Of a DNA stretch of 33,039 bases, positions 1-30,980 are shown piece by piece. The stretch is from Oligoflexia bacterium (lineage in GTDB: Bacteria; Bdellovibrionota; UBA1018; CAIMNF01), in contig CAIOKW010000014.1 of NCBI GenBank assembly GCA_903858975.1, positions 1 through 33,039 of the forward strand, read 5' to 3'. Every line of letters starts with the position of its first letter. Within the stretch, counting starts at the first letter, position 1. A program made the translations under genes and the position numbers. The notes beneath the pieces were generated by a model. That model saw only the letters and a program-made list of their open reading frames with translations. It had not been told where the DNA came from and did not search any database.

Positions 1-791
1 TGGGCATACTGTCGATTGAGGAGTGTGGTCGTGCTAAAAAATGGGACTCCAAGTCTTAACCAGTAGACCTGTAAAATCAAAAACAAACCAAAATAGAGTA
101 CCCCCAAACCCACGGGCGCTCGGCCCGAGTGAAGGGCGCCCTCGAGGGGGATCACACTCCCCAAAATAATCAAGAACGCCATCAAAATAAGACCCAATTG
201 GCTTCCCGAGTACTTTGGAATCAACACCATCCAATCGCTCATGAAAATAGACCCGAGCAAGTGGGTTGCCAGAACATAAAACAGGGAGAGGACCACCGCC
301 CAAACCCCAAACATCAGCGTTCTTTGTCGGATGAGTCGCACCCAGTTTTGACTCTTTTTAGATTCAATTAAAATGAGGCTGGTGGAACAGAAGTACATCC
401 CAAGAGCCGCACCCAGAAAGAGGACTAGATTATTTGCCTGAAACAAAATCGAAATAAAGAGAGCATTAAACACAAGAAAGAGACTTGTATTTTGCTGATC
501 ACGAACGCTCAATTCCCGGTGGAAATAAAACAAGAGCCCAAAAATTGCTAGGGACCCAAGTGAAAGCAAGCGTCCAAAATAAGACAAGGAATCTGAATAG
601 AGAACCTGAAGTGGGGATTCAAAAAATGCAAGATCCGTTCTAAACGTGAAATAAACGAGTATCGCAGCAATCGCGGGGGAAAGAATCAGTGCCAAGGCCT
701 TCAGGCTCAGCACTCGAAAATTGACAACGACGAGAGATACAAACAAACACCCGATCAAACTAATTTCGGGCAGCCAATTTAATAGAGTCAC
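1..791 (-). CDS. NuoN-like membrane protein, highly divergent; 3' end runs off the window (not in ORF track)
   Basis: Manual translation from GTG at 791 (GTGA overlap with upstream stop) is open to position 1: MTLLNWLPEISLIG...YSDSLSYFGRLL...QANNLVLFLGAALGMYF.... The 'LPEI' N-terminus and 'ANNL..F' segment resemble NuoN, and it is last in nuo gene order. Confidence 0.65.
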   Translation of the reverse strand, partial: MTLLNWLPEISLIGCLFVSLVVVNFRVLSLKALALILSPAIAAILVYFTFRTDLAFFESPLQVLYSDSLSYFGRLLSLGSLAIFGLLFYFHRELSVRDQQNTSLFLVFNALFISILFQANNLVLFLGAALGMYFCSTSLILIESKKSQNWVRLIRQRTLMFGVWAVVLSLFYVLATHLLGSIFMSDWMVLIPKYSGSQLGLILMAFLIILGSVIPLEGALHSGRAPVGLGVLYFGLFLILQVYWLRLGVPFFSTTTLLNRQYA

Positions 792-1771
792 TTGATACCG
801 CCCATCCAATAAAATCCAATTCCTGAACAAATCTGGACTGCCACCACCAACCAGAAACGAACCTTAAGTCGAAGGGTCGCAACTGAAGGCTGGTAACTTT
901 GATACGCAATCAATGTAATGGCTTGTAAGAAATAGCCGGCTAAGAGCACAGAGAGCCAAACGAGATTCAAGGAGATCGCCATTTTAGCCGCGAAAAAAAT
1001 GGCCGTAAAACCAACTAAGCCCGGTAACCCCAAACAAGCTACTTTTGAGAACGCATGATAGCGGGGACCCATTTGAGCTGCAAGTCCCATCAGGGACAGT
1101 GAGCTGACGATCGATACTGAAATTGCGGCAAAGGTCACTTTACCGAGCGCCTCGTTATCAATCATCAAAATAAAGAGCGCAAGTCCAACCCCCGCCAAGG
1201 AAAGATAGATGATCGAGGACTTCATGCGCTGGCGCAAAAAAGCCATCAAGCTTGAATAAATGTAAGTAAAAATTCCGAGCACCGATAGCGCAACGTCCCA
1301 GAGCTGCGCGTTTTCTATTTTCATTTCAGGTCTAATCTTTAAAAGAATCTCAATTCCCACCAGAGATGGAATCACCGCTGCCCCCATAAATGAGGACAGT
1401 GTCAAACGCTCATAATAGCGGTTGAAAAAAAGAACGTGTGGGCCTGTCGGCAATGAAATCAATACTCCCAAGAACATGAGCACGCGAGAAGCTGGCTCAT
1501 CTCCCATCGCCGCCCCCAGAATGGCGCAAAAGATTCCTAGAAAGCTAATAAAGAATTTTTTTTGCACCAAAGGATTACTTGCACGTCTCGCGCCCAAAGT
1601 AGACTGAATGAATGCAACCATGTTTAGAGTTAAAAGCAACAATAGACTCATTGGAATCGACTTTGAAAAGAACACAAGTGCTGCAATCAACACCGACAAC
1701 CAAGATTGAGGCGCTAGGCTCAAGGCCCATGAGGCAGCAACACAAGTACCCAATAAGTTGAGCTCCATCAT
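788..1771 (-). CDS. NuoM-like (antiporter-like) membrane protein, divergent and shortened (~327 aa)
   Basis: Polytopic membrane ORF. 'ACLGLPGLVGF' matches NuoM 'SLGLPGxxGF', and 'AFLRQRMKSSIIYLS' matches 'AxxQxDxKRLIAYSS'. Start moved to ATG 1771 (ATGA overlap with upstream gene). Confidence 0.65.
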   Translation of the reverse strand: MMELNLLGTCVAASWALSLAPQSWLSVLIAALVFFSKSIPMSLLLLLTLNMVAFIQSTLGARRASNPLVQKKFFISFLGIFCAILGAAMGDEPASRVLMFLGVLISLPTGPHVLFFNRYYERLTLSSFMGAAVIPSLVGIEILLKIRPEMKIENAQLWDVALSVLGIFTYIYSSLMAFLRQRMKSSIIYLSLAGVGLALFILMIDNEALGKVTFAAISVSIVSSLSLMGLAAQMGPRYHAFSKVACLGLPGLVGFTAIFFAAKMAISLNLVWLSVLLAGYFLQAITLIAYQSYQPSVATLRLKVRFWLVVAVQICSGIGFYWMGGIK

Positions 1772-2616
1772 GATAGAAAGCCTCCACGTCCGATGAGAAT
1801 AAAAATACCAACACAAATCATGGTGCCTAAAACCACGTAGAACATTCGGTCAAAACCTGACTCGAGTGAGACCGAAGATGTCGCAGGCTCTCGCCCCTCC
1901 CAAACATCTCGATCTGATATCATCCGTCCACCCACCGTAAGTGCCTTCAACATATTGACTCTAAACGCTCGATAGGTTTTCAAAAATCCTTCATTACGCC
2001 ACTTCACCCATGCAAAGAGAGCCGCCACAATAAACACAAAAGAAGATGCCAGGATTACCAGCGAAGATTCTTCTGCCCACTTCTGAATATCCACATGGAA
2101 TCCAAAAAGGATCGCGAGCGTACAGACTGCCTCTAGGAAGGGCAGAATTTTTTGTTCGTGTTTGGCCTTAGACCATCTCAAGAGCTCTGCTGAAAACCAA
2201 TATACTCCAGCCCCTATGAGTGGAATCTCAAGTTGTTCTGGCTGAGGAAAATACTGTCTAAACAATACCAGTGCAGGAATGGTTCCCAGCATCCCGCCAC
2301 CAAAACTCATCGAAATGAGGATCACTCCCAATAGACCACTAAACTCCCTAAATGGCTCGGGTGAAATCGCTCCCATCATAATCAAAAAGAATCCAATAAA
2401 GTCCTTTAGTTGAATCCAAGCGGAAGCCTTCGAATCAATTCGGTGCCAGAGCACCAGACCCGAAAATAAAATTGCTACGAGCGGCCCATGTAGCAATGAA
2501 CCCAAAAGAACCATGACAAATGGAAGAACCCTGCGCTCCCGAATGAGCCCAATGGCACTAAAAATAAAAAACAAGATTGTCGTCTGATCTAGGCGACTCA
2601 ACTCAAGATTCATCAT
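1768..2616 (-). CDS. Membrane protein in the NuoL position of the operon (~282 aa, about half of normal NuoL length)
   Basis: Multi-TM ORF with GGAGG upstream of ATG 2616. It ends in a long hydrophilic/amphipathic stretch and a final TM helix, reminiscent of the NuoL lateral helix plus TM16. Identity rests mostly on position. Confidence 0.45.
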   Translation of the reverse strand: MMNLELSRLDQTTILFFIFSAIGLIRERRVLPFVMVLLGSLLHGPLVAILFSGLVLWHRIDSKASAWIQLKDFIGFFLIMMGAISPEPFREFSGLLGVILISMSFGGGMLGTIPALVLFRQYFPQPEQLEIPLIGAGVYWFSAELLRWSKAKHEQKILPFLEAVCTLAILFGFHVDIQKWAEESSLVILASSFVFIVAALFAWVKWRNEGFLKTYRAFRVNMLKALTVGGRMISDRDVWEGREPATSSVSLESGFDRMFYVVLGTMICVGIFILIGRGGFLS

Positions 2617-2842
2617 GATCGATTTGAACCTCCCCACGGGAAATGGCAAGTTGCGCCACTGCTAGAATTGCGAACAAAAAGACAGCCGTTGAGATGACGC
2701 TTTCTTCAGAAAAGCGGGCACCCACAATTCCAAGAATCGAGAGCGACACTCGCAATACGGCACCCGCGAAGTCAAGGGCATCGCCCGCAATGAATAAGGT
2801 ATAGAGTGAAAAAGTAAGGAGAAGCACGCCTAGAATAATCAT
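2603..2842 (-). CDS. NuoK-like small 3-TM membrane protein, divergent
   Basis: 79 aa with three hydrophobic segments. 'FAILAVAQLAIS' resembles NuoK TM3 'xxxAAAEAAVG'. ATGA-coupled to the upstream gene and in the NuoK position. Confidence 0.5.
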   Translation of the reverse strand: MIILGVLLLTFSLYTLFIAGDALDFAGAVLRVSLSILGIVGARFSEESVISTAVFLFAILAVAQLAISRGEVQIDHDES

Positions 2843-3219
2843 CGCTTCCTCTTTTCTACCGCAACCCCAACCATCATCGCAGCAGAGAAAAGAGACACCA
2901 CGACCACCAGGGGGAGTAGGGAATCAAAAACAAATGGCTTGTCACTCCCCGTGGCCGGAGTTCCAGCATCCATTAAAAGAGGAGTCAGAGACACGCCCAA
3001 TAACACCGCAAGGACTGCCGCCTTTATTTTCTTTCCTGTCGTGATGGTTTGATCTGAACTACCCAGCAAAAACCTCACGCGAGAATTCTGAAACTGAATC
3101 AAAAGGCTCAACACCAATACTAAGACCCCTAAAAAGGGAACCTTCAAACAGAGAAATGCCGAGACCACTAAAAGGAAAACACCATCAAAAATTCGCAACT
3201 TAAAGGTCCCCTCTACCAA
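2839..3219 (-). CDS. Membrane protein in the NuoJ position, divergent
   Basis: 126 aa, about 4 TM segments, between nuoI and the nuoK-like gene, with a basic C-terminus. Assigned by position; start codon uncertain. Confidence 0.45.
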   Translation of the reverse strand: MVEGTFKLRIFDGVFLLVVSAFLCLKVPFLGVLVLVLSLLIQFQNSRVRFLLGSSDQTITTGKKIKAAVLAVLLGVSLTPLLMDAGTPATGSDKPFVFDSLLPLVVVVSLFSAAMMVGVAVEKRKR

Positions 3220-3592
3220 AACTCATTTTAAGATCCTTCACTTCAAACACCGCAGCCTGAACTTCCTTGGTTTGAATGAGAGAATTAGGTTCACAGACCT
3301 CAACGCAAAGACCACAAAAAATACATTTCGAAAAGTCGATGTCGAATCGAGAAACCCAAGGGCGATTGTTTCGCGCATTTACTTTTGCATCTACCTCGAT
3401 GCATGCCGAGGGACACACCTTTACGCAATCTCCACAGCCGGTGCATTTTTCAATTTCATTAAACAGGAGTCCGCGCGCTCGAGCAGGGAAGTCGTCTTTA
3501 CCTCGAGAAGATACCGGATCCGGATAGAACTCGGTGTCGATCTTTCGAGTTTCATTTTTATTGGTGAAATGACCTAAGATTTTCTTAAACAC
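3200..3592 (-). CDS. nuoI: NuoI-like 2x[4Fe-4S] ferredoxin subunit
   Basis: CTGCGDCVKVCP and CIFCGLCVEVCEP motifs, plus 'YP...FPARARG' and 'FDIDFSKC', typical of NuoI. GTG start 5 nt after GGAGG. Confidence 0.88.
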   Translation of the reverse strand: MFKKILGHFTNKNETRKIDTEFYPDPVSSRGKDDFPARARGLLFNEIEKCTGCGDCVKVCPSACIEVDAKVNARNNRPWVSRFDIDFSKCIFCGLCVEVCEPNSLIQTKEVQAAVFEVKDLKMSFGRGDL

Positions 3593-4382
3593 GCGCCCCT
3601 CCTGGCTCAAAGAGTGCGAAACCTAACATCGCAATCAACCAAAGTACTCCCGTAATCGGGAAGAGATACAGAATGCTGATTCGAAGGAGGTCTTTTTGGT
3701 GGAATCGTGGGAAGTAAATTCCACAGATGCGAAACCCTAGATAGAGAATCGTTGCCTTTAAGTGAAAATCAAAAAAGTATTCTCCGCCGCCCAAGAAGAG
3801 TTTCGCCGTTAGCATGGACCAAACGTAGAACCGCGCAGATTGGAGCCAGCCTTTTTTGTCGAGCATGCCTTGAAAGGGGTGCTCTCCAAAGAGGATCATC
3901 CCAGAAAGCTGAAAGGGAATAACGAACAATAACTGACCAAAATTCCAACTCACACTACTCATGTTCGTTGTTTTAGAAATCGTAAAACATCCAAACAGAC
4001 AAAGAATAGCAATAGCACTTGAAACCGCAAAACGAACCTGCTGCCCATCGGATTCAATTCGCTTCGTAACCTGGTTCTTTCCATGCGCCAAGGCAATGAG
4101 CAAATAACCGCTGACCGCGAGGTAAATAAAAATCAAGTAATCAAAATTGAGTGCGATTAAGCCAACAATTGACAACTGGAATGCATAAAGGATCCAAGTC
4201 GTTTTAGACTCGATGTTTTTAATTTCAAGTCTTGCATCCACCCAGGTTTGCCAAATGAAATTACGAAACGCGATTTGCTTTCCGACTCGAGACTCATGGC
4301 GAGCCACCATTCTTTCGCTCATGGCGTACATCAGAAAAGAAAGTGGAAAAATTGAGATGATGGCTAAAATGGCTGAAATCAT
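3585..4382 (-). CDS. nuoH: NuoH-like membrane subunit, divergent (265 aa)
   Basis: 'SERMVARHESRVG' resembles 'ERKxxAxxQxRxG'; also 'HPF', 'FPRFHQKDLL' resembling 'PRxRxDQL', and 'YLFP'. Located between nuoD and nuoI. Confidence 0.7.
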   Translation of the reverse strand: MISAILAIISIFPLSFLMYAMSERMVARHESRVGKQIAFRNFIWQTWVDARLEIKNIESKTTWILYAFQLSIVGLIALNFDYLIFIYLAVSGYLLIALAHGKNQVTKRIESDGQQVRFAVSSAIAILCLFGCFTISKTTNMSSVSWNFGQLLFVIPFQLSGMILFGEHPFQGMLDKKGWLQSARFYVWSMLTAKLFLGGGEYFFDFHLKATILYLGFRICGIYFPRFHQKDLLRISILYLFPITGVLWLIAMLGFALFEPGGARV

Positions 4383-5389
4383 CGATCAAGCTCCGGGATA
4401 GACAGCGACAGACTCTCGAGAATGATGGACACATCCTCGAGTGATTCTCCCTCGAGCGCCGGCGCGATTGCATTTTGAATAAGTTCGGACGGGGAGTGAG
4501 TCACCAGTGACTTCACCTTTAAATCTTGATCAAGCGATAGCTTCATTTTCCAAACTCCTCGCGCAGTTTCAAGCTCTAGGTTCGCGTCTCCGCCACGCCC
4601 CTGGCCCAGCGCCTGAAGATGCACGCTGGATTTTCTTTCTACCAAATGAGCCTCGATGGACTGGCTCATTTTCAAACAATGCTTCAGAGAATAAACCAAT
4701 CTCGACTCAACATGGCTTACCCGTCCGTATCGAGTGGTTTCAATCGAAGCCTCGCTGACAAAGCCGCAATCTCCAAGATCCACAATTTGCCCAAGCGTTC
4801 TCATTCGATTTTGAAAGGTATGCGTCCAACAAAAAAGGGCTTCAAGCCTAGCGTAGTCATTTTGGAAAGTCTTCACCCAGGTTTCAAGACGCTCTTGAAA
4901 TCCTTCCGTCAGATCGTAACGTGCGCCCCCTGGAACCAGATAATAGTAACCGTATCGGGAGCCCGTGAGGAGCTCAAGTAGATCAAGGAGAGACTCTCGA
5001 TGCTTTAAAACAGCATGAAATAGAATTTGAATTCCCATTCGATGCGCCATTTTCGCCAAGTATTTCAGCTGAAAATTAATCTCACTCAGATCACTCGTAA
5101 TGTCTCGAATCCACTCGATTCGATCGCTGACTTCCGTTTTTGTAATTTCTTCAACCGCCTCACTGAAGAGCCGATCAAGCAGCAGAGCACTTTCTGGCTC
5201 TAGGCGGCTCACTCTCAATTGAGCATCACGTATGGGTAAACCCTCTACGGTTTTCTCGATCAGGCGGCTAGCGAAACCAAACTGGGTTTCGACTTTTACA
5301 ATACGATCCCCGCTCATTCCTAAGCGAAGCTTCATGGGTCCAGGGAGCCATTCGTGAATAGGTCCAAGCTCAAGTGTTTCTTGAATCAT
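4379..5389 (-). CDS. nuoD: NuoD-like (49 kDa / NiFe large-subunit fold) subunit, divergent
   Basis: N-terminal 'LGPIH...G..RL...GD.I...GF..R.IEK', 'E.LTGSR......PGG..DL', 'E.ARG' and C-terminal 'ELDR'. No CxxC NiFe ligands. Confidence 0.85.
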   Translation of the reverse strand: MIQETLELGPIHEWLPGPMKLRLGMSGDRIVKVETQFGFASRLIEKTVEGLPIRDAQLRVSRLEPESALLLDRLFSEAVEEITKTEVSDRIEWIRDITSDLSEINFQLKYLAKMAHRMGIQILFHAVLKHRESLLDLLELLTGSRYGYYYLVPGGARYDLTEGFQERLETWVKTFQNDYARLEALFCWTHTFQNRMRTLGQIVDLGDCGFVSEASIETTRYGRVSHVESRLVYSLKHCLKMSQSIEAHLVERKSSVHLQALGQGRGGDANLELETARGVWKMKLSLDQDLKVKSLVTHSPSELIQNAIAPALEGESLEDVSIILESLSLSIPELDR

Positions 5390-5763
5390 TTTTGAACCTC
5401 ACGCAAAGACAAAATTCCATTCATAATCGCTTCGGGGCGGGGCGGACATCCGGTGACATAAATATCTACCGGAATTTTCTCGCTCGAATTCAAGGGGAAC
5501 AAGCCCCCTCCACATGCGCAGGTTCCTACAGCGATGACGTATTTAGGAGCTCGCATCTTTGCATAGAAGCTTTCCACTTCGGTCTGTAGGCTCGCGTTAA
5601 GGGTTCCCTGGATCACTAACAAATTGGCATCCTCTACCTGCTCGGCACGGATGCAACCCAGTCGCTCTAAATCGTAACGACTCGATTCCGTCTGAATCCA
5701 ATCGTCTCCACAGCAAGAGAGTCCAACACGAACGTATTTAAGGGTGGGTTTAAAGGTCTTCAT
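5386..5763 (-). CDS. nuoB: NuoB-like Fe-S (N2) subunit
   Basis: GLSCC, RYDLERLG, PKYVIAVGTCACGGG, VDIYVTGCPPRPEA. The tandem CC is complex I type. Confidence 0.92.
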   Translation of the reverse strand: MKTFKPTLKYVRVGLSCCGDDWIQTESSRYDLERLGCIRAEQVEDANLLVIQGTLNASLQTEVESFYAKMRAPKYVIAVGTCACGGGLFPLNSSEKIPVDIYVTGCPPRPEAIMNGILSLREVQK

Positions 5764-5974
5764 CGGAGTCTTTCTTCAAGTAGTTCTGCGTTGCCAAGAA
5801 GAATGACAAAAAGACTATCATCATGACCAAAATCGCGATTAAATAGGGGATGATCCGAATCTCACTGGAGATGAAAACCGGAAGGGCCATAAGCAGCGGA
5901 ATCCACAAGTAAAGAATCACTTGGGTTATCTGCGTGGTCTTGATCTCAAAGGGCAAAATTCTTTTCGGATCCAT
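5750..5974 (-). CDS. Small membrane protein in the NuoA position (~74 aa)
   Basis: Two TM segments; stop overlaps the nuoB start. Start moved to ATG 5974 to avoid a head-to-head overlap with mfd. Identity by position only. Confidence 0.45.
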   Translation of the reverse strand: MDPKRILPFEIKTTQITQVILYLWIPLLMALPVFISSEIRIIPYLIAILVMMIVFLSFFLATQNYLKKDSDEDL

Positions 5975-5985
5975 TTGTAATGAAA

Positions 5986-6015
5986 AGGCTACTTGAAAGT
6001 GAAAGGGTGAGTCAA
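5986..6015 (-). promoter_or_regulatory. Candidate sigma70 promoter for the nuo-like operon
   Basis: Minus strand TTGACT-N18-TAGCCT ending 11 nt before ATG 5974. Confidence 0.3.
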
Positions 6016-9000
6016 TGCCTGCCGATTCGCGTGAGATAAAATTATCTTCATCCCTAGCCCAAGCCTTCTCCACCTATCGATCTGCCACACAGCAAAAAAG
6101 ATCAATTCAGGTGATGCTTCTCCCTCGTACTGAGCAAATCGAGGAGCTTCAACTCTTGCTTCAGAGCTTTATTGATGCGGAACGAAATGAAGTGGCGCGC
6201 CCCATTGAGGTGTGCCTTTGGCCTGCCTGGGAACATTCGCCCTTTTCACCCGTGTCCTCGTCCATCACCCAAAAGACAGATCGACTTCGAACCTTATCGC
6301 TCCTCAGCAATCCTTCACCCTCCTTGATTATTCTTGCCTCTTTAGAGTCCTGGATCCAACCCACCCTTCCAAAATCAGCGTTTGATCAAGCCCAATTTGA
6401 AATTGAGCTCAATGACGATGCGGGCCTAAGGGATGTGCTTCGCCAAAGACTCAGGAACCTGGGTTATGTTCCCAGTGAACTCGTTCAAGAGCCGGGGCAG
6501 TTTGCATTTCGGGGTGAGATCTTGGATGTCTTTATTCCCACTCATCCCATGCCGGCTCGAATTGAGTTTTTTGATACCATTCCTGAAACCATTCGATTCT
6601 TTCATCCTGAGACTCAGCGCACACAAAAAACGGAAAAACCGCTCCAATCCATCCTCATCTCGCCAGCAGAAGAGGTCTTGTTTCCCTGGAACGAGCAGGG
6701 AAAAATCTTGGAGCGCATTAAGGAATATTGCGATCTAAATCAAATATCCAGGAAAGTTCGGGACCCGATATTTGAAAACGTTCGGAATGGCTTTCTTCCA
6801 GATCATTTTAGGACCTGGTTTCCATTCGTTTATGAAAACTTAGGTCATTTAAAGGACTACTTACCTGAAGATGCGGTATTAAGTGTTCTTGAGCCAGAAC
6901 AGATTCAATTAGAACTGACTCGAACCACTGAATTTTTAAAAAAAGAAGAAACCAAATACTCACAACCTTATTGGATCACACCTTCATTTGATCGCCTCTA
7001 TCCAGCCCTGAGCGCACTGATCGATCAAACCCTGAACCAGGCTCAGAGAATCGTCCGGGCTGCGCCTGAAGACTTAAAAGCAAAGGGACCTATTCCTTTT
7101 GACCCACTCCCTTCGGCAAGGGTGACTGAAAATGAAATTGAAGAGTGGCTAGAGGATGGTTTTAAAGTTTGGGTGGGAACTCGGGGGCTCACCCATCAAG
7201 AACGTCTTCGCTTTTCATTAAAAAAAGTCCAGAAGAACATTGGATTTAAGCTCTTAGGTTTTGATTCAGGGGAATCGTTTCAGTTTCTGACCGAGAAGCA
7301 AATCATTCTTTCAGAGACCGCAATCTTTGGTCAGGCACACCAACACTCCAAGCGCCCCAGTCAACCCAGGCATCCCAAATTTGAACAAACCGAGGGTCTC
7401 GACTTTCAACACCATCAAGATCTGGCGGTGGGTGATTTTGTGGTCCACTCCCTTCATGGGGTTGGAAAGTATGTGGGCCTCCAGGAATTAAAATCCGGAA
7501 ACAAACACCTCGGGGAATATCTTTTGATTGAGTATTCAGGAGGAGATAAGCTCTACCTTCCCGTCTATCGACTGAACACGATTCAGCGTTACGTTGCCTC
7601 TGGAGGAAGCGCTTCACTTGATAAGCTTGGGACGGGTCAATTTGAGAAAGCGAAGCAAAAAGCGCGCGAATCAGCTCGAAAACTCGCAATTAACTTGGTC
7701 GAGATTTACGCCAAACGCGCCCTATTAAAGGGGCCTCGTTTTGATCCGCCTGGCGACGAATACTATGAGTTTTGTGATCAATTTGAATTCACAGAAACCG
7801 AGGGTCAACTGAAGGCCATTCAAGATGTCCTGCAAGACCTAGAGGCCGGAAAACTACTCGATCGCTTGGTGTGCGGAGACGTCGGCTTTGGTAAAACTGA
7901 AGTCGCCATTCGAGCCGCCTTTCAGGCTGTTCAAAGTGGCCATCAGGTGGCACTCTTGGTGCCCACCACGCTCCTTGCGTTTCAGCACGAGCAATCATTT
8001 AAAAATCGAATGAAAGATTTCCCAATTCGAATTGAGTCGATTTCTCGATTTAAGACGAAAAAAATTCAGAATGAAACACTGAAGGAACTGAAAGAGGGAA
8101 AGATCGATATTTTGATTGGCACCCACCGCATACTTTCGAAAGACGTTGAGTGGAATCGCCTGGGTCTACTCATGATTGATGAAGAACATCGTTTTGGGGT
8201 TGAGCACAAAGAAAAAATTAAAGCCATTCAAGCAAATACCCACACTCTCACACTGACGGCGACACCGATTCCACGGACCCTCAACATGGCGATCAGTGGC
8301 CTTAAAGACATCAGCGTGATTAAGACACCTCCGACCAATCGACAGCCAATTAAAACCTACGTTTCAAGCTACTCCGAAGAACTCATCAAGGGCGCACTCG
8401 AGACCGAGCTTGCTCGTGGGGGGCAGATTTTCTACCTCTACAATCGTGTTCAAAGCATTCAGCACCAAGCCGACGAGATTCAAAAACTCGTTCCTCACGC
8501 AAAAGTGATTGTGGCTCACGGTCAAATGTCCGAAGCCGAAATTGAGTCCAAAATGCTTGAGTTTTATCAAGGCCAGGCTCAAATTTTGGTCTGTACCACA
8601 ATTATTGAATCCGGCATTGATGTCCCGAATGCTGGCACAATTCTCATTCATCGCGCCGACCAACTTGGACTCGCTCAGCTCTATCAAATTCGGGGTCGGG
8701 TGGGCCGAAGCCATCGTAAAGCGTTTGCCTATTTACTTGTGAATGATGAATCCACGCTCACTAATGACGCCAAGATGCGACTCGACGTCCTTCAGCGCTT
8801 TGTGGAACTCGGAAGTGGATTTCAAATCGCATCTTACGATTTAGAGATTCGTGGCGGTGGAAACTTCTTGGGTGGTGAACAGTCAGGACATGTGACTTCC
8901 GTAGGACTTGATCTCTTTACCGAGCTTCTGGAAGAGGCCATTCAAGAGCTCAAAGGACAAAAAATCGATGTGGAGGAACGTCATTTTGAGCCCGAAATTC

Positions 9001-9461
9001 AGGTGCCTGCCGTTTGTGAGATCAGTAGTACGCTCGTGCCGGATGCTAAGCTTCGTCTGTCTCTCTATCGGAAAATTTCAAACGCCAGAACGCCCGAGAT
9101 GGTGGATGCACTGTTTGAAGAGTTTCGAGATCGTTTCGGTGAGGTACCAATGGAGACCGAGAATTTATTTTGGCTCATCCGCCTAAAGAACTTACTGAAA
9201 AGAGCCGGCATTGAGCAACTCTCCGTAACTGGAGAGAGAACCTCGATGACCGTCAGAAAAACGTCGCAAGTCGATGCAGATGAGGTCATGAAGATCTATG
9301 CGGGCCCGAAAACGATTCGCGACCCGCGGGTACAACTGACTCCAGACTCCAAGATCCTCCTCACACTTCCATTTTTCAGCCTTCAGAGTCATCTTTTTGA
9401 GCTAGAGGCTTTTCTTAAGAAAATCGCGCCCAAAGCATTTGAAAATGCAAAAACCCACTGA
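6015..9461 (+). CDS. mfd: Transcription-repair coupling factor Mfd
   Basis: 1148 aa. UvrB-homology 'RGEILDVF', RID 'VVH..HGVG.Y', helicase motifs [20 protein letters not shown] and [11 protein letters not shown] motif 'DLEIRG.GN.LG.EQSG', and TRCF C-terminal domain. Confidence 0.98.
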
Positions 9462-9473
9462 TAAACTAAATTT

Positions 9474-10295
9474 ATGAAAAAAATATTTTTGCCTCAGGTT
9501 TTAGCCGGAGTTTTGATTTCAACCCAAATGACTTTTGCGAGCACGGAAGCGGCTCGTGTTAACGATCGTGTCATTACCCTGGAAGACGTGAACTCCAAGC
9601 TCGCCGAGGTCGCTCGCGCCAATCCTCTCAATGCGCCAACTAGAAAACAAATTCTCGATGACCTCATTAAGCGGGAAGCGGCGATTCAAGAAGCTAAAAA
9701 ATTGCGTCTCGACCAAGATCCGGTGGTCACTGAACGCATCAACAACGTCTTATTCTTCGCACTTTTGGAAAAGAAACTGGGCGCTGATTTTGAACGCATG
9801 ACGCTTTCCGAGGCGGAAGCAAAGAACTGGTATGAGAAAAATCCAGAAATTCGTACAAGCCATATCTTTGTAGCGCTCCCCCCAGATGCAACTGCGGATG
9901 ACGAAGCAAAAGCATCAAAGAAACTGGCAAATGCACTTTCAGAAATTAAGTCAGGCAAAGTTTCCTTTGCTGAAGCAGCTCAAAAGTATTCTGAAGACCC
10001 AAGCTCTGCCATGGGCGGAGATCTCGACTACCGAATGAAAGATCGCTTGGACCCGAGCTTTTATAAAGCTGCAATTAAGCTCGGCAAGGTGGGTGATATC
10101 ACTAACCCGATTCGCACTCCATTTGGGATGCATTTGGTACGATTAACCGGTAAACACCCCTGGGTAGAAGTAGATCGCACCCGAGTGAAGCGACTCATCA
10201 TTGAAGAACGCAGACAAGAGCTCGTTGGGCGATTCTTGAACGATTTGCGTCAAAAGACTAAAGTTTCAATCAGCGACAAGTCCCTTAAAGACTAA
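9474..10295 (+). CDS. Periplasmic parvulin-type peptidyl-prolyl isomerase (PpiC/PrsA-like foldase)
   Basis: Signal peptide; 'SHI', 'FAEAAQKYSED...GGDL' and 'PIRTPFGMHL'. Confidence 0.92.
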   Translation: MKKIFLPQVLAGVLISTQMTFASTEAARVNDRVITLEDVNSKLAEVARANPLNAPTRKQILDDLIKREAAIQEAKKLRLDQDPVVTERINNVLFFALLEKKLGADFERMTLSEAEAKNWYEKNPEIRTSHIFVALPPDATADDEAKASKKLANALSEIKSGKVSFAEAAQKYSEDPSSAMGGDLDYRMKDRLDPSFYKAAIKLGKVGDITNPIRTPFGMHLVRLTGKHPWVEVDRTRVKRLIIEERRQELVGRFLNDLRQKTKVSISDKSLKD

Positions 10296-10353
10296 GCTTT
10301 TCTGCTCCTTTAACATTGGAATTACTAGCGTTTTATGAGAAATCTTGGAGGTG

Positions 10354-11310
10354 ATGAACTTTCAAGATTTTTCTTTTTTAGGGCTCGCTCTTTCCTTAAT
10401 GCTGAATCCAGCACACGCTGAAATCGTGGATCGCGTTGAGGCAATTATCAACAAAAAGGCCATCTACAAATCGGATGTGGATTTATACAAGTCAACAATC
10501 TCACTTCGCGCAAAGGTAGATCCCCTTTTTGCCAGTGAGCCGCTCTCAAAGAAAATGAAACCTGCGGACTCTGAGGTCATTGATTTCTTAATTAATGAAA
10601 ATCTGATTCTTGAAAAGTTTCCCGTGGCTGATTCCGAGGTAGAACAAGAGATCAATGGAATCCAAGGTAACCTCAAGATTGATCGGGACTCCTTAAAGGC
10701 CGCTATTCGGCGCGAAGGGTTTAAGTTTGATGACTACTTTAAACTCATGCGCGCCTCTATTTCAAAGAGACAGCTGATTGATCGCGAAATTAGAAATAAG
10801 GCCGCTGTATCTGATGACGACATTCGCGCTGATTTTAACCGCGCGCACGCAGGCTCAAAATCATTCAGGGGCTCGTTTCATCTTTTTCTCATTAAGATCA
10901 CAAAAAAGAATTTTAAAACATCTCAGCTCGCAAAAGAACAGGCGCAAGCGGCGCTTGATTCCATCAAAAAAGCCGAGGCTTTTGAAGAGGTCGCAAAGCG
11001 CTTCAGCGATGATGAGTCTCAAGCGGCGGGTGGCGATTTGGGATACCTTTCTTACAGCGACATGTCGCCTATGCTTCAAAAGGAAGTTCAAAAGATTGGA
11101 CCCGAAAAGGTGGGCGGTCTGATCGAGGACAAACTTAATTACATGATTGTTAAGACAGGAGAGATCAAGGCCGAGAGTGATGCTGGGCTTGAGAAAGAAC
11201 GTGAGTCGATTCGAGGCCGCTTAATGGAAACCGAATTTCGCCACCAAGTTCAACTTTGGCTTGAGCGTGAACGCTCCAAAAACTTCGTAAAAATTAATAC
11301 AAAATCATGA
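10354..11310 (+). CDS. surA: SurA-like periplasmic chaperone/PPIase
   Basis: Signal ending in AHA, SurA N-terminal 'EIVDRVEAIIN', one parvulin domain 'FEEVAKRFSDD...GGDLG'. Followed by pdxA as usual. Start may be 10345-10354. Confidence 0.85.
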   Translation: MNFQDFSFLGLALSLMLNPAHAEIVDRVEAIINKKAIYKSDVDLYKSTISLRAKVDPLFASEPLSKKMKPADSEVIDFLINENLILEKFPVADSEVEQEINGIQGNLKIDRDSLKAAIRREGFKFDDYFKLMRASISKRQLIDREIRNKAAVSDDDIRADFNRAHAGSKSFRGSFHLFLIKITKKNFKTSQLAKEQAQAALDSIKKAEAFEEVAKRFSDDESQAAGGDLGYLSYSDMSPMLQKEVQKIGPEKVGGLIEDKLNYMIVKTGEIKAESDAGLEKERESIRGRLMETEFRHQVQLWLERERSKNFVKINTKS

Positions 11311-12251
11311 AACCCTTTGATCTTGTCATCACTCCCGGCGATCCCGATGGAATTGGTCCAGAAGTGACCGCAAAAGCGATCTTATCGCTTGCGCCGAAAC
11401 TAAAGCATCACTCGCTCGTTATTGTTGGTTCCTCGAAACCTTTTAAAGGCTCCTTTTCAAAACTTCAGCGGCTCGGGGTTGAGTTCTTTGAACCGCCCAC
11501 ACGATCAAGCCCCGGCTATCAATCGGGCTGGGCCATTGAAACGGCCACTCAGTTTGTAATGGCGGCACCCAAATCTCGCGCCCTCATCACGGGGCCCATT
11601 AGCAAGGAGCGTCTTCAAGCGGGTGGTTTTATATTTAAAGGCCACACGGATTTCCTAGCAAACCTCACTGATACAAAAAATGTAACGATGTTATTAGCGA
11701 ATGAGCTTTTCAGGGTCGCGCTCGTTACAAACCACTGCGCACTGAAAGACGTATCAAAAAGGATTACCGAAAAAGCGATTGAGACCACCTTCAGCCACAG
11801 TTTTGATTATGCATCTCAGCTCTTAAATAAAAAGCGACCGAAGATCGCGATCCTGGGTCTGAACCCCCATTCCGGAGAAAACGGAATCCTAGGAGAAGAA
11901 GAGAAGAATGTCATTATCCCAACTATAGCAAAACTGAGGAAGAAATATAAATCAGCCATCATTACTGGTCCTCATCCTGCAGACTCATTTTTTGCAATGG
12001 AAGCTAGAGCTAAGCCCAAGGATCACCATGACGTGATTCTAGCGATGTACCACGACCAAGGACTGATCCCTGTAAAGCTATCTGATTTTAGTCACAGCCT
12101 AAATATGACCTTAGGCCTCCCCATCGTTCGAACATCGGTAGACCACGGAACCGCTTTTGATATTGCAAAGAAAAACAAGGCCGACCCGAGCAGCATGATT
12201 TATGCGATCACTCAGGCGATTCAATATTTAAACTCAAGGAGCAAAGCATGA
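11307..12251 (+). CDS. pdxA: 4-hydroxythreonine-4-phosphate dehydrogenase
   Basis: GDPDGIGPE, GHTDFL, GLNPHSGE, AMYHDQGL, RTSVDHGTAFDIA. Confidence 0.97.
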   Translation: MKPFDLVITPGDPDGIGPEVTAKAILSLAPKLKHHSLVIVGSSKPFKGSFSKLQRLGVEFFEPPTRSSPGYQSGWAIETATQFVMAAPKSRALITGPISKERLQAGGFIFKGHTDFLANLTDTKNVTMLLANELFRVALVTNHCALKDVSKRITEKAIETTFSHSFDYASQLLNKKRPKIAILGLNPHSGENGILGEEEKNVIIPTIAKLRKKYKSAIITGPHPADSFFAMEARAKPKDHHDVILAMYHDQGLIPVKLSDFSHSLNMTLGLPIVRTSVDHGTAFDIAKKNKADPSSMIYAITQAIQYLNSRSKA

Positions 12252-13639
12252 ACCCCACTATTTTTAGAGAGTATGACATCAGAGGAATTGCCGGGACCGA
12301 TCTCACTAAAGACTTCGCCTATGATCTGGGTCGAACCTACGCCGAGTGGGCGCTTGAGAAGTCCAAAAAAGAGACTCTCCTGATTTCAGTTGGGCGTGAT
12401 TGCCGCCTAACGAGTGATGAATATTCTGAGGCGCTTATCCGCGGGCTTCGCGAAGCTGGTTTGTCGGTAATTGACATTGGCGTGTGTCCGACACCGCTCA
12501 CCTATTTTTCTATCCATCACTATAAGACCGATGGCGGAATCATGATCACGGGGTCTCATAACCCTGCTGAATATAATGGTTTTAAAATTGGCCTTGGAAA
12601 AGACACCCTTCATGGCGAGCAAATCCAAGAACTTAAGCATGTGATGATGAAGGGGAACTATAAAAATCGCCCCGTGGGATCACTCACTCAGGCGGAGATC
12701 ATCCCGCATTATCTAAAATATGTGGCCGATCAGATGAAGCCCGCGAAAAAACTGAAAGTGGTGCTCGATGCAGGAAATGGAACCGCATCCAATGTTGCTC
12801 CACAACTTTTTCGAATGATGGGGGCTGAAGTCATTGAGCTCTATTGCGAGCTCGATGGCCGCTTTCCGAATCATCACCCGGACCCTACGGTTCCTAAAAA
12901 CCTGAAGGCCTTGATTGCAGCCGTGAAAGAACATAAAGCCGATTTTGGTGTCGGATATGATGGAGATTCTGACCGGATCGGTGCAGTCGATGAGAATGGC
13001 AAGATCATTTACGGCGATGAACTCATGGTGATTTTTTCTCGAGAGGTTTTGAAGAGCTTCCCTGGGGCTACCATCATTTCTGAAGTGAAATCGAGCCAAC
13101 GACTTTATCAAGATATCCAAAAGCATGGCGGCAACGGAATTATGTGGAAGACGGGCCACTCTCTGATCAAGTCGAAAATGAAGGAAACGAAAGCTCACCT
13201 TGCGGGCGAAATGTCAGGACATATTTTCTTCGCTGATCGCTGGTTTGGATTTGATGATGCGATTTATTCATCGGCTAGGCTCTATGAGATTGTAGCAAGA
13301 GAGGGAAAGCTCTCTTCCCTCACTGCTGATCTGCCCGCGGCGGTGAACACTCCTGAGATCCGTATCGACTGTGAGGAGGATAAGAAATTCACCCTCATTG
13401 AAGAGGCTGCTAAGCTCCTACAAGACCCATCCGCTAAGCTCACCAGCATCGATGGGCTTCGGGTCGATTATCCAGATCACTGGGGACTGATTCGCGCCTC
13501 CAACACCCAGCCAGTTGTCGTGATGCGTTTTGAAGCTCAGACCGAAGAAAAGCTAAAAGAGATTCAAACCAAGTTCGAAAATGCACTTGCGGCTGCCGCA
13601 AAGAAATGTGGTCATGGAGAATTCAAATACGGGCACTGA
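12248..13639 (+). CDS. algC: Phosphomannomutase/phosphoglucomutase (AlgC-like)
   Basis: FREYDIRG, catalytic TGSHNP, metal loop DGDSDR, GEMSGH, RASNT. Confidence 0.93.
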   Translation: MNPTIFREYDIRGIAGTDLTKDFAYDLGRTYAEWALEKSKKETLLISVGRDCRLTSDEYSEALIRGLREAGLSVIDIGVCPTPLTYFSIHHYKTDGGIMITGSHNPAEYNGFKIGLGKDTLHGEQIQELKHVMMKGNYKNRPVGSLTQAEIIPHYLKYVADQMKPAKKLKVVLDAGNGTASNVAPQLFRMMGAEVIELYCELDGRFPNHHPDPTVPKNLKALIAAVKEHKADFGVGYDGDSDRIGAVDENGKIIYGDELMVIFSREVLKSFPGATIISEVKSSQRLYQDIQKHGGNGIMWKTGHSLIKSKMKETKAHLAGEMSGHIFFADRWFGFDDAIYSSARLYEIVAREGKLSSLTADLPAAVNTPEIRIDCEEDKKFTLIEEAAKLLQDPSAKLTSIDGLRVDYPDHWGLIRASNTQPVVVMRFEAQTEEKLKEIQTKFENALAAAAKKCGHGEFKYGH

Positions 13640-16615: not shown

Positions 16616-17326
16616 TCAGTGATCGTGACTTGCTGATAACGAGATATAGACCATAGTCATCAAACAAAATACGAACGCCTGAACTAGAGCAACAAAGAGC
16701 CCGATCCCGTAGAATATAGCAGGAACTCCATAGGGCACCAAGTTATTAAAAATTCCAAGAACCACGTGGTCTCCCATGATGTTTCCTCGAAGACGAAGTC
16801 CGAGAGAAATCGGGCGAAATACATGGGATGCGATCTCCACGATCAACATCAAGGGAGATAGCCACAAAATTGGGCCAGCAAAATGCTTCAAATATCCAAT
16901 TCCGTTTTCACGGAGGCCAACGTAATTGTAATAAAGAAATACGAAAAGGCCGAGCGCGAAAGTCGTATTGAGATTATCCGTTGGAGGCAACAATCCTGGG
17001 ATCATTCCAATTAAGTTAGACGCAAAAATAAAAATAAAGAGTGCCCCTACAATTGGGAAATACTTCTCTGCTCCGTGCTTGCCCATGACGTTCACAGCAA
17101 GCCCATAAAGTTTTTCGGCAAGGATTTCGAAAAAGTTTCTGAAGGTGAGCTTAGCATCCGGTACGAGGCCTTCATCTTCACGCTTTTTCGCTGCATTCAA
17201 TTGAATGCGAGCAATGAGACCTGCAATGATCACCATCGCTACCACAGCAGTTGCCATGAAAACGTGCCCGTATTCATGAACTTCAAATCCTGGAATCAAG
17301 CTTAACCAATTAAAACCGTGTTCCAC
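16616..17326 (-). CDS. atpB: ATP synthase F0 subunit a
   Basis: 'SNLIGMIPG..PPT', 'RPISLGLRLRGNI' with the essential Arg, 'VQAFVF..L..VYI'. Confidence 0.97.
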   Translation of the reverse strand: MEHGFNWLSLIPGFEVHEYGHVFMATAVVAMVIIAGLIARIQLNAAKKREDEGLVPDAKLTFRNFFEILAEKLYGLAVNVMGKHGAEKYFPIVGALFIFIFASNLIGMIPGLLPPTDNLNTTFALGLFVFLYYNYVGLRENGIGYLKHFAGPILWLSPLMLIVEIASHVFRPISLGLRLRGNIMGDHVVLGIFNNLVPYGVPAIFYGIGLFVALVQAFVFCLMTMVYISLSASHDH

Positions 17327-17332
17327 TATGCT

Positions 17333-17722
17333 TCACCCTTGTTGAGTTTCATTATATCTCCGAGAAATTACCGCAGAAACGAGCGGACCCACAGCCATGA
17401 ATCCAATCCCGAGTAGCGCAGCAGCGTCTGGAGCATTTCTTAATCTTTTCAGCGTTATAGCCAAAAATCCGAGACAAACCAACTTAAAAGTGAGGAAAAT
17501 CACCACCTGAAGGTTTCTGCCGCGCTGCTCAGGCGGGGTAAAGAAGAGTCGCCAAAAGAGAAACACCAAAAAAAGGAGGTCCAGCAGGGTTAGGAGGAAG
17601 ACCTGACAGAAGGCGGATCGCCCTTCAGGCTGATTCCAATAAATCCCAGTACCCATGAGGAGCCACGTGAGACTTACGAGTAGAAGGATATTTAAGAATT
17701 TTTTACTTTGTTCCGGTTTCAT
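17333..17722 (-). CDS. atpI: ATP synthase protein I-like 4-TM membrane protein
   Basis: 129 aa, four TM segments, directly upstream of atpB. Mostly positional. Confidence 0.6.
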   Translation of the reverse strand: MKPEQSKKFLNILLLVSLTWLLMGTGIYWNQPEGRSAFCQVFLLTLLDLLFLVFLFWRLFFTPPEQRGRNLQVVIFLTFKLVCLGFLAITLKRLRNAPDAAALLGIGFMAVGPLVSAVISRRYNETQQG

Positions 17723-25882: not shown

Positions 25883-25887
25883 TGAAA

Positions 25888-30251: not shown

Positions 30252-30276
30252 GACCGAGTTCTCCTGTAAATTCGTT

Positions 30277-30855: not shown

Positions 30856-30980
30856 GAATCAGGGCGTCCTTTCCCAATAGTTTCACTCTATTTAGGATGG
30901 AGGCTTTTATGCGCTAATTCAAAGTAAAAGTTCGTTGAAGAAAAGAATTTAACGTCAATCTTTTGAATGGTTTTAGTATT

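Follow-up and report, generated by a model that had tools for sequence, protein, structure and literature searches.

A miniaturised complex-I-like gene module beside canonical nuoA-N in uncultured Bdellovibrionota derives from an 11-gene paralogue lacking NuoEFG

Analysis of a 33,039-nt stretch of DNA from an Oligoflexia bacterium (here called the window) showed that the ten genes at its start are a miniaturised descendant of a complex-I-like paralogue of 11 genes (A, B, C, D, H, I, J, K, L, M, N) that lacks NuoEFG. This full-size paralogue sits between mfd and the canonical nuoA-N operon throughout an order of uncultured Bdellovibrionota. The ten open reading frames (ORFs) of the window lie on the minus strand at positions 1-5974, contain no internal stops and follow the order A' B' D' H' I' J' K' L' M' N'. 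They are given here together with the neighbouring mfd gene:

A', 5750..5974, minus strand: 74 amino acids (aa) from a conserved ATG; small, with 2 predicted transmembrane (TM) helices, at the NuoA position
B', 5386..5763, minus strand: 125 aa; NuoB homologue lacking ~30 N-terminal residues, with the four N2-cluster cysteines retained
D', 4379..5389, minus strand: 336 aa; NuoD fold with the quinone ligands replaced and the NiFe cysteines absent
H', 3585..4382, minus strand: 265 aa; divergent, shortened NuoH with the acidic TM5-6 loop deleted
I', 3200..3610, minus strand: 136 aa; NuoI homologue with both CxxCxxCxxxC motifs, the best-conserved subunit
J', 2839..3219, minus strand: about 116-126 aa; 3 predicted TM helices, at the NuoJ position
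K', 2603..2842, minus strand: 79 aa; 3 predicted TM helices, at the NuoK position, with both membrane glutamates absent
L', 1768..2616, minus strand: 282 aa from a conserved ATG; truncated antiporter-like protein with a C-terminus of TM helix, amphipathic helix and TM helix
M', 788..1771, minus strand: 327 aa with about 10 TM helices; truncated NuoM-type protein without TM5 Glu, TM7/TM8 Lys and TM12 Glu
N', 1..791, minus strand: first ~263 codons; NuoN-type protein without TM5 Glu, TM7 Lys and TM12 Lys
mfd, 6015..9461, plus strand: divergently oriented ORF, a conserved neighbour that marks the locus and lies outside the complex

A first-pass annotation of the window had described ten co-oriented, translationally coupled ORFs in nuo order, and the overlaps that it quoted were all found on the coding strand: ATGA at 5386-89, 4379-82, 2839-42 and 1768-71 and GTGA at 788-91. 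It had also called the operon intact, which holds for the stop-free ORFs but not for N', of which only part lies in the window. It begins at the first position of contig C14, and the 19 nt there also form the end of contig C311; the N' frame, cut by the edge of C14, extends on C311 to about 454-467 aa. The putative join of the two contigs rests on this 19-nt overlap, the continuity of the frame and synteny. A canonical 14-gene nuoA-N operon follows on C311 ~37 nt past N'; the second, canonical nuo set that had been suggested as a check is located in the same genome, and its position directly beside the module had been overlooked. At the related locus L006, the spacing between N' and nuoA is 38 nt, and no terminator-like site was found between the two genes.

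The reported absence of nuoC, nuoE, nuoF and nuoG stands for the ten-gene set but not for the locus, where these genes are present in the canonical operon past N'. None of the ten products gave a NuoE, NuoF or NuoG family match (0 in Pfam, NCBIfam and hhalign), and the E, F and G genes at the locus are members of the downstream operon. Likewise, no PF00329 match indicative of NuoC was obtained in the ten-gene set, and since B' and D' overlap by 4 nt, there is no space for nuoC between them. The proposed association with mfd in related genomes was recovered as well: mfd lies upstream at L006-L010 and L048-L053 and also in four genomes without the module. No candidate partner gene linked to the locus was found.

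Clear Pfam and NCBIfam matches were obtained only for B', D' and I', with weak ones for H' and M'. B' (Pfam PF01058, 7.7e-21; NCBIfam NuoB, 4e-33) aligned to canonical B in hhalign (99.7%). Its four cysteines are found in every one of the 15 paralogue rows and align with those of P. denitrificans NuoB (chain 8qby_B), and the pattern CC...C...C, which includes the tandem Cys-Cys of complex I, is retained in 10/10 B rows of the genus and its sister genus. I' aligned to canonical I (hhalign, 98.8%) and gave Pfam Fer4 matches; its eight cysteines are invariant in all paralogue rows (14/14). Identity between the window and L006 amounts to 86% for I' and 74% for B'. Since folding alone could preserve such Fe-S ligands, their conservation is not proof of electron flow.

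D' aligned to canonical D over 330 columns (hhalign, 99.2%) and gave Pfam and NCBIfam family matches. Its AF2 model (pLDDT 91.8) retrieved Nqo4 as the top Foldseek match (E 1e-18, TM 0.88). His38 and Tyr87 of Nqo4/NuoD are given as the quinone headgroup ligands, with Asp139, in PMC4758237. A phmmer alignment with T. thermophilus Nqo4 (2fug_4) places P16 of D' at H38, P65 at Y87 and R117 at D139, and proline occupies both ligand positions (H38, Y87) in 9/9 D' rows of the genus. An equivalent of His38 occurs in 0 of 15 paralogue rows and one of Tyr87 in 1 of 15, while both occur in 4/4 canonical rows. MbhL was the second-best phmmer match of D', and MbsL ranked 27 in Foldseek; the NiFe cysteines of MbhL (CGIC) align to E64 and S67 of D' (phmmer). 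Among the invariant and near-invariant columns of the 27-row D' family alignment there is no Cys, and the D' pocket holds no ligand residue conserved family-wide.

The membrane subunits are more divergent, and the assignment of A', J' and K' is based solely on position and size: hhalign revealed no homology of A' to NuoA and none for J' or K'. A' shows 61-85% identity in 9/10 other genus genomes and 36% in L043, with dN/dS of 0.00-0.02, and J' is conserved in position in 11/11 genomes, with dN/dS of 0.05-0.08. Pfam NADHdh was matched by H' at E 0.0017 and by its L043 orthologue at 6.6e-9, the latter above the cut-off; in hhalign, H' aligned to the H subunit of the full-size paralogue (75%). 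M' gave a weak NCBIfam match to NuoN (8e-4) and aligned to M of the full-size paralogue (hhalign, 88%), as did N' to its N subunit (90% over 439 columns). L' had no sequence-family match in Pfam, NCBIfam or hhalign. A wide VIA-align search with its AF2 model (pLDDT 71) returned mostly NuoL/M/N, Mrp, MBH and MBS subunits in the top rows at Z 7-8.6, with an rmsd of about 3.2 A over 155 residues, a moderate structural match; VIA-align itself warns that unrelated helical models may reach about Z 13.

The predicted L'-M' complex scored 0.66, 0.64 and 0.66, compared with 0.00 for the best control; the mark for this score is reached by 116/157 solved complexes and 2/215 mismatched pairs. The runs had at least 91% of contacts in common, with a partner pLDDT of at least 67, and the amphipathic helix of L' (residues 219-234) rests on M' in the prediction. 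The score may stem from the likeness of the pair to solved NuoL-NuoM pairs.

Glu and Lys residues of NuoK, NuoL, NuoM and NuoN form the relay of canonical ion pumping in complex I. Alignments showed that the two Glu of NuoK and the TM5 Glu, TM7 Lys and TM12 Lys/Glu of NuoL/M/N are absent from the module, with relay positions taken from the canonical subunits encoded in the same genomes; at 15-25% identity, these single-residue calls are less secure than those for B', D' and I'. Across the 11 genus sequences of M', no conserved acidic residue was found, and a conserved-charge scan showed that M' also lacks any conserved Lys or His placed in a hydrophobic context. Conserved charges in fairly hydrophobic surroundings were found in N' (E15, R57, R252 and R283) and in H' (E167, H168, K209 and R218).

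Descent of the module was traced by synteny and phylogeny. The arrangement mfd / paralogue / nuoA-N was found in families f1, f8, f10 and f12. In a tree of D sequences, D' of the genus and that of its sister genus group in one clade (100/99) that joins the D sequences of the full-size paralogue, the nearest relatives of D', and canonical D sequences form a separate clade (100/100); branches in this tree are long. The full-size paralogue (L049-L053) occupies the same locus and strand with the same gene order, and its Fe-S ligands are equally retained. It has a small NuoC (ORFs of 132-243 aa, with PF00329 confirmed on the 132-aa ORF of L049), whereas the module has none. Its H (344-389 aa), L (635-670 aa), M (491-509 aa) and N (490-516 aa) are far from the 265 aa of H', 282 aa of L' and 327 aa of M', and Pfam still identifies its H, J, M and N. 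The loss of NuoC is common to the genus and its sister genus, which carries an intermediate form, and the shrinkage of subunits is greatest in the window's genus, where A, B, D, H, J, K, L and M are shortened. A published description of the miniature module or of the full-size paralogue was not found.

Judging from the sequences, most residue losses are older than the genus and already present in the full-size paralogue. At 4 of its 5 loci (families f8 and f10), the equivalents of Nqo4 H38 and Y87 are likewise lost, and the NuoK Glu and the TM5 Glu and TM7 Lys of L/M/N are also gone at these loci. The first-pass annotation had proposed a membrane complex that keeps its Fe-S wire without a canonical quinone site or pumping residues, and the ligands of B' and I', the exchange of H38 and Y87 for Pro and of D139 for Arg, and the alignments of the membrane subunits are all in line with this. 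Redox sensor, scaffold and uncoupled electron conduit are the candidate roles that it put forward. Its description as "stripped" fits the missing residues, but these losses mostly predate the genus and are seen in a paralogue that has NuoC and L/M/N subunits of 490-670 aa. The statement that the operon fits no class was too strong for a reduced descendant of an EFG-less 11-subunit paralogue found at the same locus order-wide.

Of the 13 genus genomes that carry D', 11 were verified to have the layout of ten plus fourteen genes with mfd in divergent orientation. Since the identical gene set and order, mostly with 4-nt overlaps, recurs in 10 further genus genomes, the arrangement is far beyond chance. 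Overlaps typical of translational coupling are conserved across the genus, and all ten genes are free of frameshifts and stops in 11 genomes, though some subunits are down to 22-45% identity. For 4 close species pairs, dN/dS was 0.00-0.08 for all ten genes and 0.00-0.06 for canonical A-F, confirming that the set is maintained and not decaying, as had been proposed. Between the window and L006, dN was 0.09-0.50 for the module and 0.05-0.25 for canonical A-F. All ten genes are missing from 4 genomes of a single clade, and the module behaves as all or none. Since this four-species clade discarded it, the module is dispensable under some conditions; the start of the nuo operon in these species is apparently normal (nuoA to nuoD or nuoE examined). 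An in-frame TAG was observed in paralogue D of a more distant genome (G019).

The gene order of the module matches that of respiratory complex I (Nuo/Nqo, 14 core subunits; T. thermophilus 4hea, E. coli 7p61). B', D' and I' share the NuoB, NuoD and NuoI folds, with ligands for clusters N2, N6a and N6b present; H', M' and N' are homologous to NuoH, NuoM and NuoN; and L' combines an antiporter-like N-terminal half with a lateral-helix-like C-terminus. Unlike complex I, the module lacks NuoE, F, G and C, has H38, Y87 and D139 replaced, shows no pump residues in A, H, K, L, M and N, and has L' and M' of about half size. EFG-less 11-subunit enzymes lack the NADH-oxidising module, as does the window's set; this NUO11 class is defined in PMC4758237, and a Desulfitobacterium 11-subunit enzyme appears in PMC11238625. 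Cyanobacterial/chloroplast NDH-1, Fpo and a split B-C-D-I cluster of other Bdellovibrionota (L058-L061) are also counted in this group. Their D is short and misses the canonical insertion, like D', and the EFG-less 11-subunit type is the likely ancestral type of the paralogue. These enzymes retain NuoC, however, and the ten genes of the window fall short of the eleven that define NUO11. Furthermore, QHPxTHG and DRxDY (H38 and Y87) are present in the split-type D at 4/4 loci from other families of the phylum, whereas D' has neither.

Group 4 [NiFe] hydrogenases (Ech/Mbh/Hyf) carry Ni-Fe Cys pairs that are not present in D'. Ehr complexes are described in PMC6349859 as hydrogenase-related with NiFe ligands missing. 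Together with Mbx and MBS (6u8y), whose function like theirs is largely unknown, they have a large subunit without ancestral active-site ligands and a small subunit with a [4Fe-4S] cluster, as in the module. By description they are set apart from it by hydrogenase-type gene sets and Mrp-like subunits and are thought to pump ions; unlike them, the module has strictly nuo order, a tandem Cys-Cys in B' and truncated antiporter-like subunits. Descent from complex I is favoured over descent from Ehr because of this strict nuo order and because the nearest relatives are NuoD, NuoB and NuoI.

Our working model combines this descent with a small Fe-S membrane complex that neither uses quinone canonically nor pumps, and as a whole we hold it with middling confidence. 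The products would build a separate, small L-shaped complex, in which B', D' and I' form a peripheral module with three [4Fe-4S] clusters of the N6a, N6b and N2 type. This would bind H', with A', J' and K' alongside and a short L'-M'-N' arm held by the lateral helix of L'. By analogy with other EFG-less relatives, electrons would enter at I' from a soluble low-potential donor, pass to the N2-type cluster in B' and exit to an acceptor other than a quinone held by the canonical His/Tyr pair. Since the Glu/Lys relay is gone, it would pump no ions in the canonical way. The module is probably produced jointly with canonical complex I, as the gap between N' and nuoA is about 37-38 nt and a terminator is absent. 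We infer that it functions as a non-pumping Fe-S module or as a pseudo-complex partner of complex I.

It is possible, though on balance rather unlikely, that the products work with canonical complex I as a co-transcribed structural partner, assembly platform or redox-sensing regulator, with clusters that serve folding or sensing. Such a role would suit a module that is invariably found immediately upstream of nuoA-N in the same orientation, tens of nt away and with nothing resembling a terminator in between, that has lost all known catalytic and coupling residues despite strong selection, whose D' pocket has no family-conserved ligand residue and whose interfaces persist as subunits shrink. 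However, a scaffold of ten membrane and Fe-S proteins would be expensive, the strongest conservation, in I' and B', is equally compatible with redox work and folding, and the four module-less species retain their apparently normal nuo start. We also find it doubtful that the stripped, progressively miniaturised paralogue is a multi-subunit pseudo-enzyme co-transcribed with canonical complex I in one 24-gene unit, kept order-wide as a non-catalytic partner of complex I or of the membrane, be it a scaffold or assembly platform or a three-cluster redox sensor.

Energy conversion by an oxidoreductase that uses non-canonical acceptor-binding residues, and other charged residues for ions, appears improbable. 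The strong purifying selection on every membrane subunit would fit, and a non-canonical ion path is conceivable because conserved charged residues persist in or near the membrane segments of N' and H'. Also, NuoD of Sulfolobus, Nautiliales and Desulfurobacteriales is listed without H38, Y87 and D139 in PMC4758237. Against this, neither a conserved acidic residue nor a conserved Lys or His in hydrophobic surroundings occurs in M', K' lacks both glutamates, roughly half of the 14-helix core is missing from L' and M', and the NuoH loop and NuoB N-terminus that line the quinone tunnel are deleted. That the module is a decaying, functionless duplicate heading for loss is hardly credible and already contradicted: its rate of evolution by dN is several-fold that of the canonical set, D-tree branches are long, one clade is module-less and the G019 paralogue carries a TAG codon, but dN/dS of 0.00-0.08 for all ten genes excludes decay, the genes are intact in 11 genomes despite low identities, coupling overlaps are conserved and loss, where seen, concerns the entire module.

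To our knowledge, natural "minimal" or "dead" versions of the enzyme are missing from work on complex I, where truncated and point-mutated forms are usually engineered instead. The locus offers a graded natural series from a full-size 11-subunit form via the sister-genus intermediate to a ten-subunit form with L' and M' of about half size, every form being under strong purifying selection and adjacent to a normal complex I. Provided that the products assemble, the series would reveal which helices and interfaces serve architecture and which serve energy conversion; if the pseudo-enzyme reading were true, the path from 11 full-size to ten half-size subunits would outline the minimal architecture that holds a complex-I-type assembly together. 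It also poses the question of what role an Fe-S wire plays on a membrane arm that does not pump. Among uncultured freshwater Bdellovibrionota the module is widespread, and since databases annotate its genes simply as NADH-quinone oxidoreductase subunits, metabolic reconstructions may over-count complex I.

The ten minus-strand genes at the start of the window (A', B', D', H', I', J', K', L', M' and N', the prime marking a paralogue of the nuo gene of the same letter) form an intact, selected and progressively reduced descendant of a complex I-like paralogue lacking NuoEFG, and a normal complex I operon follows them head-to-tail. As judged from conserved residues, this module is predicted to keep three Fe-S clusters; the residues known to serve quinone binding, NiFe binding and pumping are lost. 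It is a reduced form of that paralogue and hence not a new class, and the statement of the first-pass annotation that it fits no class goes too far. The module was read as ten consecutive ORFs without internal stops (window positions 1-6073), with gene starts picked by conservation across relatives:

5750-5974, minus strand: A', 74 aa
5386-5763, minus strand: B', 125 aa
4379-5389, minus strand: D', 336 aa
3585-4382, minus strand: H', 265 aa
3200-3610, minus strand: I', 136 aa
2839-3219, minus strand: J', 116-126 aa
2603-2842, minus strand: K', 79 aa
1768-2616, minus strand: L', 282 aa
788-1771, minus strand: M', 327 aa
start at 791, minus strand: N', running past the window edge
6015-9461, plus strand: mfd, divergent from the module

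Five overlaps between module genes that had been quoted earlier were confirmed (four ATGA, one GTGA). The ATG of A' (5974, minus) and that of mfd (6015, plus) are 40 bp apart (5975-6014). No sigma-70-like promoter was found in this gap or in 5600-6400, so the promoters of mfd and A' must either lie partly in coding sequence or belong to a different type.

Family scans identified B' as NuoB (Pfam 7.7e-21, NCBIfam 4e-33), the first 200 residues of D' as NuoD (Pfam 1.3e-17, NCBIfam 5.7e-37) and I' as NuoI (4.9e-20, Pfam/NCBIfam), none of them reaching its equivalog cut-off. Matches were weak for H' (NADHdh, 0.0017) and M' (NuoN, 8e-4), and none was found in Pfam or NCBIfam for A', J', K', L' and N'. 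Using hhalign against the full-size paralogue, an 11-gene NuoEFG-less set (A, B, C, D, H, I, J, K, L, M, N), we obtained 75% for H' versus H, 88% for M' versus M and 90% for N' versus N (439 columns); for A', J', K' and L', nothing was detected with profiles of the canonical set or the full-size paralogue.

A Pfam NuoD scan revealed a second NuoD in most genomes of the order, located about 10 kb upstream of the canonical NuoD wherever both listed matches share one contig. At five loci from three other families (L049-L053), the paralogue set lies directly between mfd and canonical nuoA-N. All eleven genes were seen in four of these five; at L051, J, K and L were not found by BLAST. The full-size paralogue has a small C, and its L, M and N measure 635-670, 491-509 and 490-516 aa. 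The sister-genus locus L048 is intermediate, with no C and with L, M and N of 414, 334 and 389 aa. Within the window's own genus, L043 (G008:C78; 2809-4206 and 5254-6186, minus) encodes an L' of 466 aa and an H' of 311 aa, the latter above the Pfam NADHdh cut-off, and by these predicted products represents an intermediate stage of the shrinkage inside the genus. In a maximum-likelihood D tree, D' of the genus and the sister genus formed one clade (100/99) with several-fold longer branches, placed among paralogue D sequences of family f10, and canonical D formed a separate clade (100/100). The tree and the synteny together rule out an independent recent duplication of the canonical operon. Upstream of the paralogue, a search for an extra partner gene at more distant loci found only mfd (six of six checked).

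The Fe-S ligands are kept. B' has an intact tandem Cys-Cys and two further N2 cysteines, and the N2 cysteines of B are present in every row: nine from the genus, one from the sister genus and five from the paralogue. Both CxxCxxCxxxC motifs of I' occur in 14 of 14 rows.

The catalytic residues of D are replaced. A phmmer alignment with Thermus thermophilus Nqo4, ungapped over residues 27-224, places P16, P65, K113 and R117 of D' at His38, Tyr87, Thr135 and Asp139. Of these, H38, Y87 and D139 have quinone-site roles according to the accessible parts of PMC4758237. The H38 equivalent occurs in none of 15 paralogue D rows and the Y87 equivalent in L051 only; both His and Tyr are present in all four canonical D rows and in all four split-type D from other families of the phylum. 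At the positions of the MbhL NiFe cysteines, D' has E64 and S67, and a group 4 hydrogenase was ruled out because D' lacks these cysteines. In addition, B' lacks about 30 N-terminal residues and H' the acidic TM5-6 loop.

The membrane subunits show corresponding losses. Two membrane positions of canonical NuoK are Glu; in the four full-size paralogue K rows, the first reads Gln, Gln, Val and Gln and the second Gln, Ala, Gln and Gln, and K' has Glu at neither. Each of canonical L, M and N carries Glu in TM5, Lys in TM7 and either Lys or Glu in TM12. In paralogue rows, these sites are occupied by Gln, Leu, Ser, Arg, His and the like; the full-size rows retain the TM12 Lys or Arg of N, L051 retains the canonical L/M/N residues in part, and L', M' and N' have none of the set. 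The positions were taken from the canonical copies of the same genomes; the roles of these NuoK, NuoL, NuoM and NuoN residues in pumping, and their E. coli numbers, are those of the complex I literature. The paralogue at L051 (G109:C26, family f12) is less stripped, having a D with the Tyr87 equivalent and an M with a TM8 Lys and a TM12 Glu; its D branches nearest the canonical clade.

Predicted structures were examined for D' and L'. The D' model (pLDDT 91.8, pTM 0.90) matched T. thermophilus Nqo4 best in Foldseek (E 1e-18, TM 0.88), and the top 50 comprised 49 complex I 49-kDa/NuoD chains and one MbsL. For the L' model (pLDDT 71), Foldseek returned no PDB match at E <= 0.001, and the ESM Atlas gave no usable match. 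With VIA-align (wide), antiporter-like subunits (complex I, Mrp, MBH, MBS, FHL) made up six of the top seven rows and most of the top 26, with Z of 7-8.6 and, for several, an rmsd of about 3.2 A over 155 aligned residues (model 1-156). This gives moderate support for a putatively antiporter-like L', since the tool warns that unrelated helical models reach such scores. The C terminus of L' (TM, amphipathic helix, TM) resembles the lateral helix of NuoL. Complex prediction for M'-L' scored 0.66, 0.64 and 0.66 (best control, 0.00), reaching a mark that 116 of 157 solved complexes and 2 of 215 mismatched pairs reach. The runs had at least 91% of contacts in common and a partner pLDDT of at least 67, and L' 46-89 and the amphipathic helix 219-234 touch M' in the predicted complex. 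As NuoL-NuoM complexes are already solved, this modeled pass is a likeness to NuoL-NuoM and no proof of binding.

For the function of the module, we give about even credence to a reading in which the ten products would assemble on their own into a small L-shaped complex, the Fe-S wire would deliver electrons to a non-canonical acceptor, and the complex would not pump.

The position of the module bears on a second reading. A canonical nuoA-N copy, which the first-pass annotation had proposed to look for, is present in the source genome (2.63 Mb, 351 contigs, 85% complete) on contig C311 (14,566 bp), with products of 120, 167, 186, 426, 160, 426, 472, 363, 147, 180, 102, 616, 498 and 485 aa in order. 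The assembly breaks inside N': C311 ends with the same 19 nt that begin C14, the contig of the window, and the N' frame continues across the overlap. Joined in silico, the contigs carry 24 co-oriented genes, with an N' of 454-467 aa that stops about 37 nt before nuoA. The putative join is supported by the overlap and the frame continuity and backed by the same layout in relatives. At L006, the N'-nuoA gap is 38 nt and contains no terminator-like site. Among the public runs listed, no RNA run contained the window sequence. Of the ten-gene operon described earlier, the intact ORFs stand; that N' is cut at the window edge and that the module abuts canonical nuo had escaped notice. A non-catalytic partner of this complex I is an unlikely though serious alternative to a self-assembling, electron-conducting complex.

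That the module is an enzyme still converting energy via non-canonical residues appears improbable. Charges conserved in 11 genus sequences are E15, R57, R252 and R283 of N' and E167, H168, K209 and R218 of H'; M' has no conserved acidic residue across 11 genus sequences. The remaining probability is reserved for something not considered.

Searching proteins with D' gave 54 more clusters (224-342 aa, 41-66% identical), beyond which identity dropped to <=31% (clusters P0056-P0063, whose Pfam domains and source names mostly indicate NuoD or NuoCD). The suspected link to mfd was borne out: the order mfd, A' B' D' H' I' J' K' L' M' N', canonical nuoA onward was found at ten of ten loci (L006-L010 from species genomes; L042, L043, L044, L046 and L047 from the same genus), with gene overlaps of mostly 4 nt across relatives. 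At L045, the module ends after I' at the contig end. Identity to L006 was 86% for I', 85% for A', 74% for B', 66% for D', 64% for H', 62% for N', 59% for L', 57% for M', 55% for K' and 47% for J', and 94% for canonical B, 92% for D, 88% for F, 87% for E, 82% for A and 69% for C. The orthologue comparison suggested earlier gave a dN/dS of 0.00-0.08 for each of the ten module genes and 0.00-0.06 for canonical A-F (Nei-Gojobori, four close species pairs; dS is saturated in distant pairs). Together with the lower identity, these sequence comparisons indicate that the module, though evolving at several times the rate of the canonical set, is under strong purifying selection. Decay into pseudogenes, ruled out by dN/dS and by ten intact genes in 11 genomes, is highly implausible. 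Foreign DNA or mis-binning was likewise ruled out by G+C (0.44-0.47 in the module versus 0.44-0.49 in the next 19 kb) and by synteny in many genomes. In a more distant genome, a paralogue D (G019:C22:45709-46806) has one in-frame TAG, possibly a pseudogene or a sequencing error.

Among 116 species genomes of the order searched, full-length D' was present in 13 of the 17 from the window's genus; more distant full-length forms occurred in the sister genus (G017, L048) and another family (G066, L049). In the four genus members without D' (G005, G010, G012 and G016; 77-93% complete), mfd directly adjoins canonical nuoA, and all ten module genes are therefore absent. These genomes form one clade in a canonical A+B+C+D tree (FastTree support 1.0), which would most simply reflect a single loss of the whole module.

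Full-text searches of the literature turned up no account of this stripped, reduced paralogue. The accessible parts of PMC4758237 only call the Bdellovibrio nuo clusters "split," and its Fig. S2 (deltaproteobacterial nuo clusters) could bear on the tandem layout. PMC13147790, in its accessible parts, reports two nuo clusters in Bdellovibrionota and nothing further, and PMC4453560 does not mention Bdellovibrio.

Downstream of mfd, the window contains two PPIase (SurA-like) genes, pdxA and a phosphoglucomutase gene (9474-13639), and an ATP synthase A-chain gene in the area of 16616-17722, with a preceding 129-aa ORF that matches no family. A replication-origin neighborhood follows at 24713-32432, where the minus strand carries dnaA (30981-32432), dnaN (25888-26991), recF and gyrB. 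The dnaA-dnaN interval contains a 192-aa ORF as well as a 933-aa ORF (27450-30251) with no Pfam match at 1e-5. At 26-28 kb the G+C content is down to 0.38-0.39, and a sign change in GC skew is seen near 29-30 kb.
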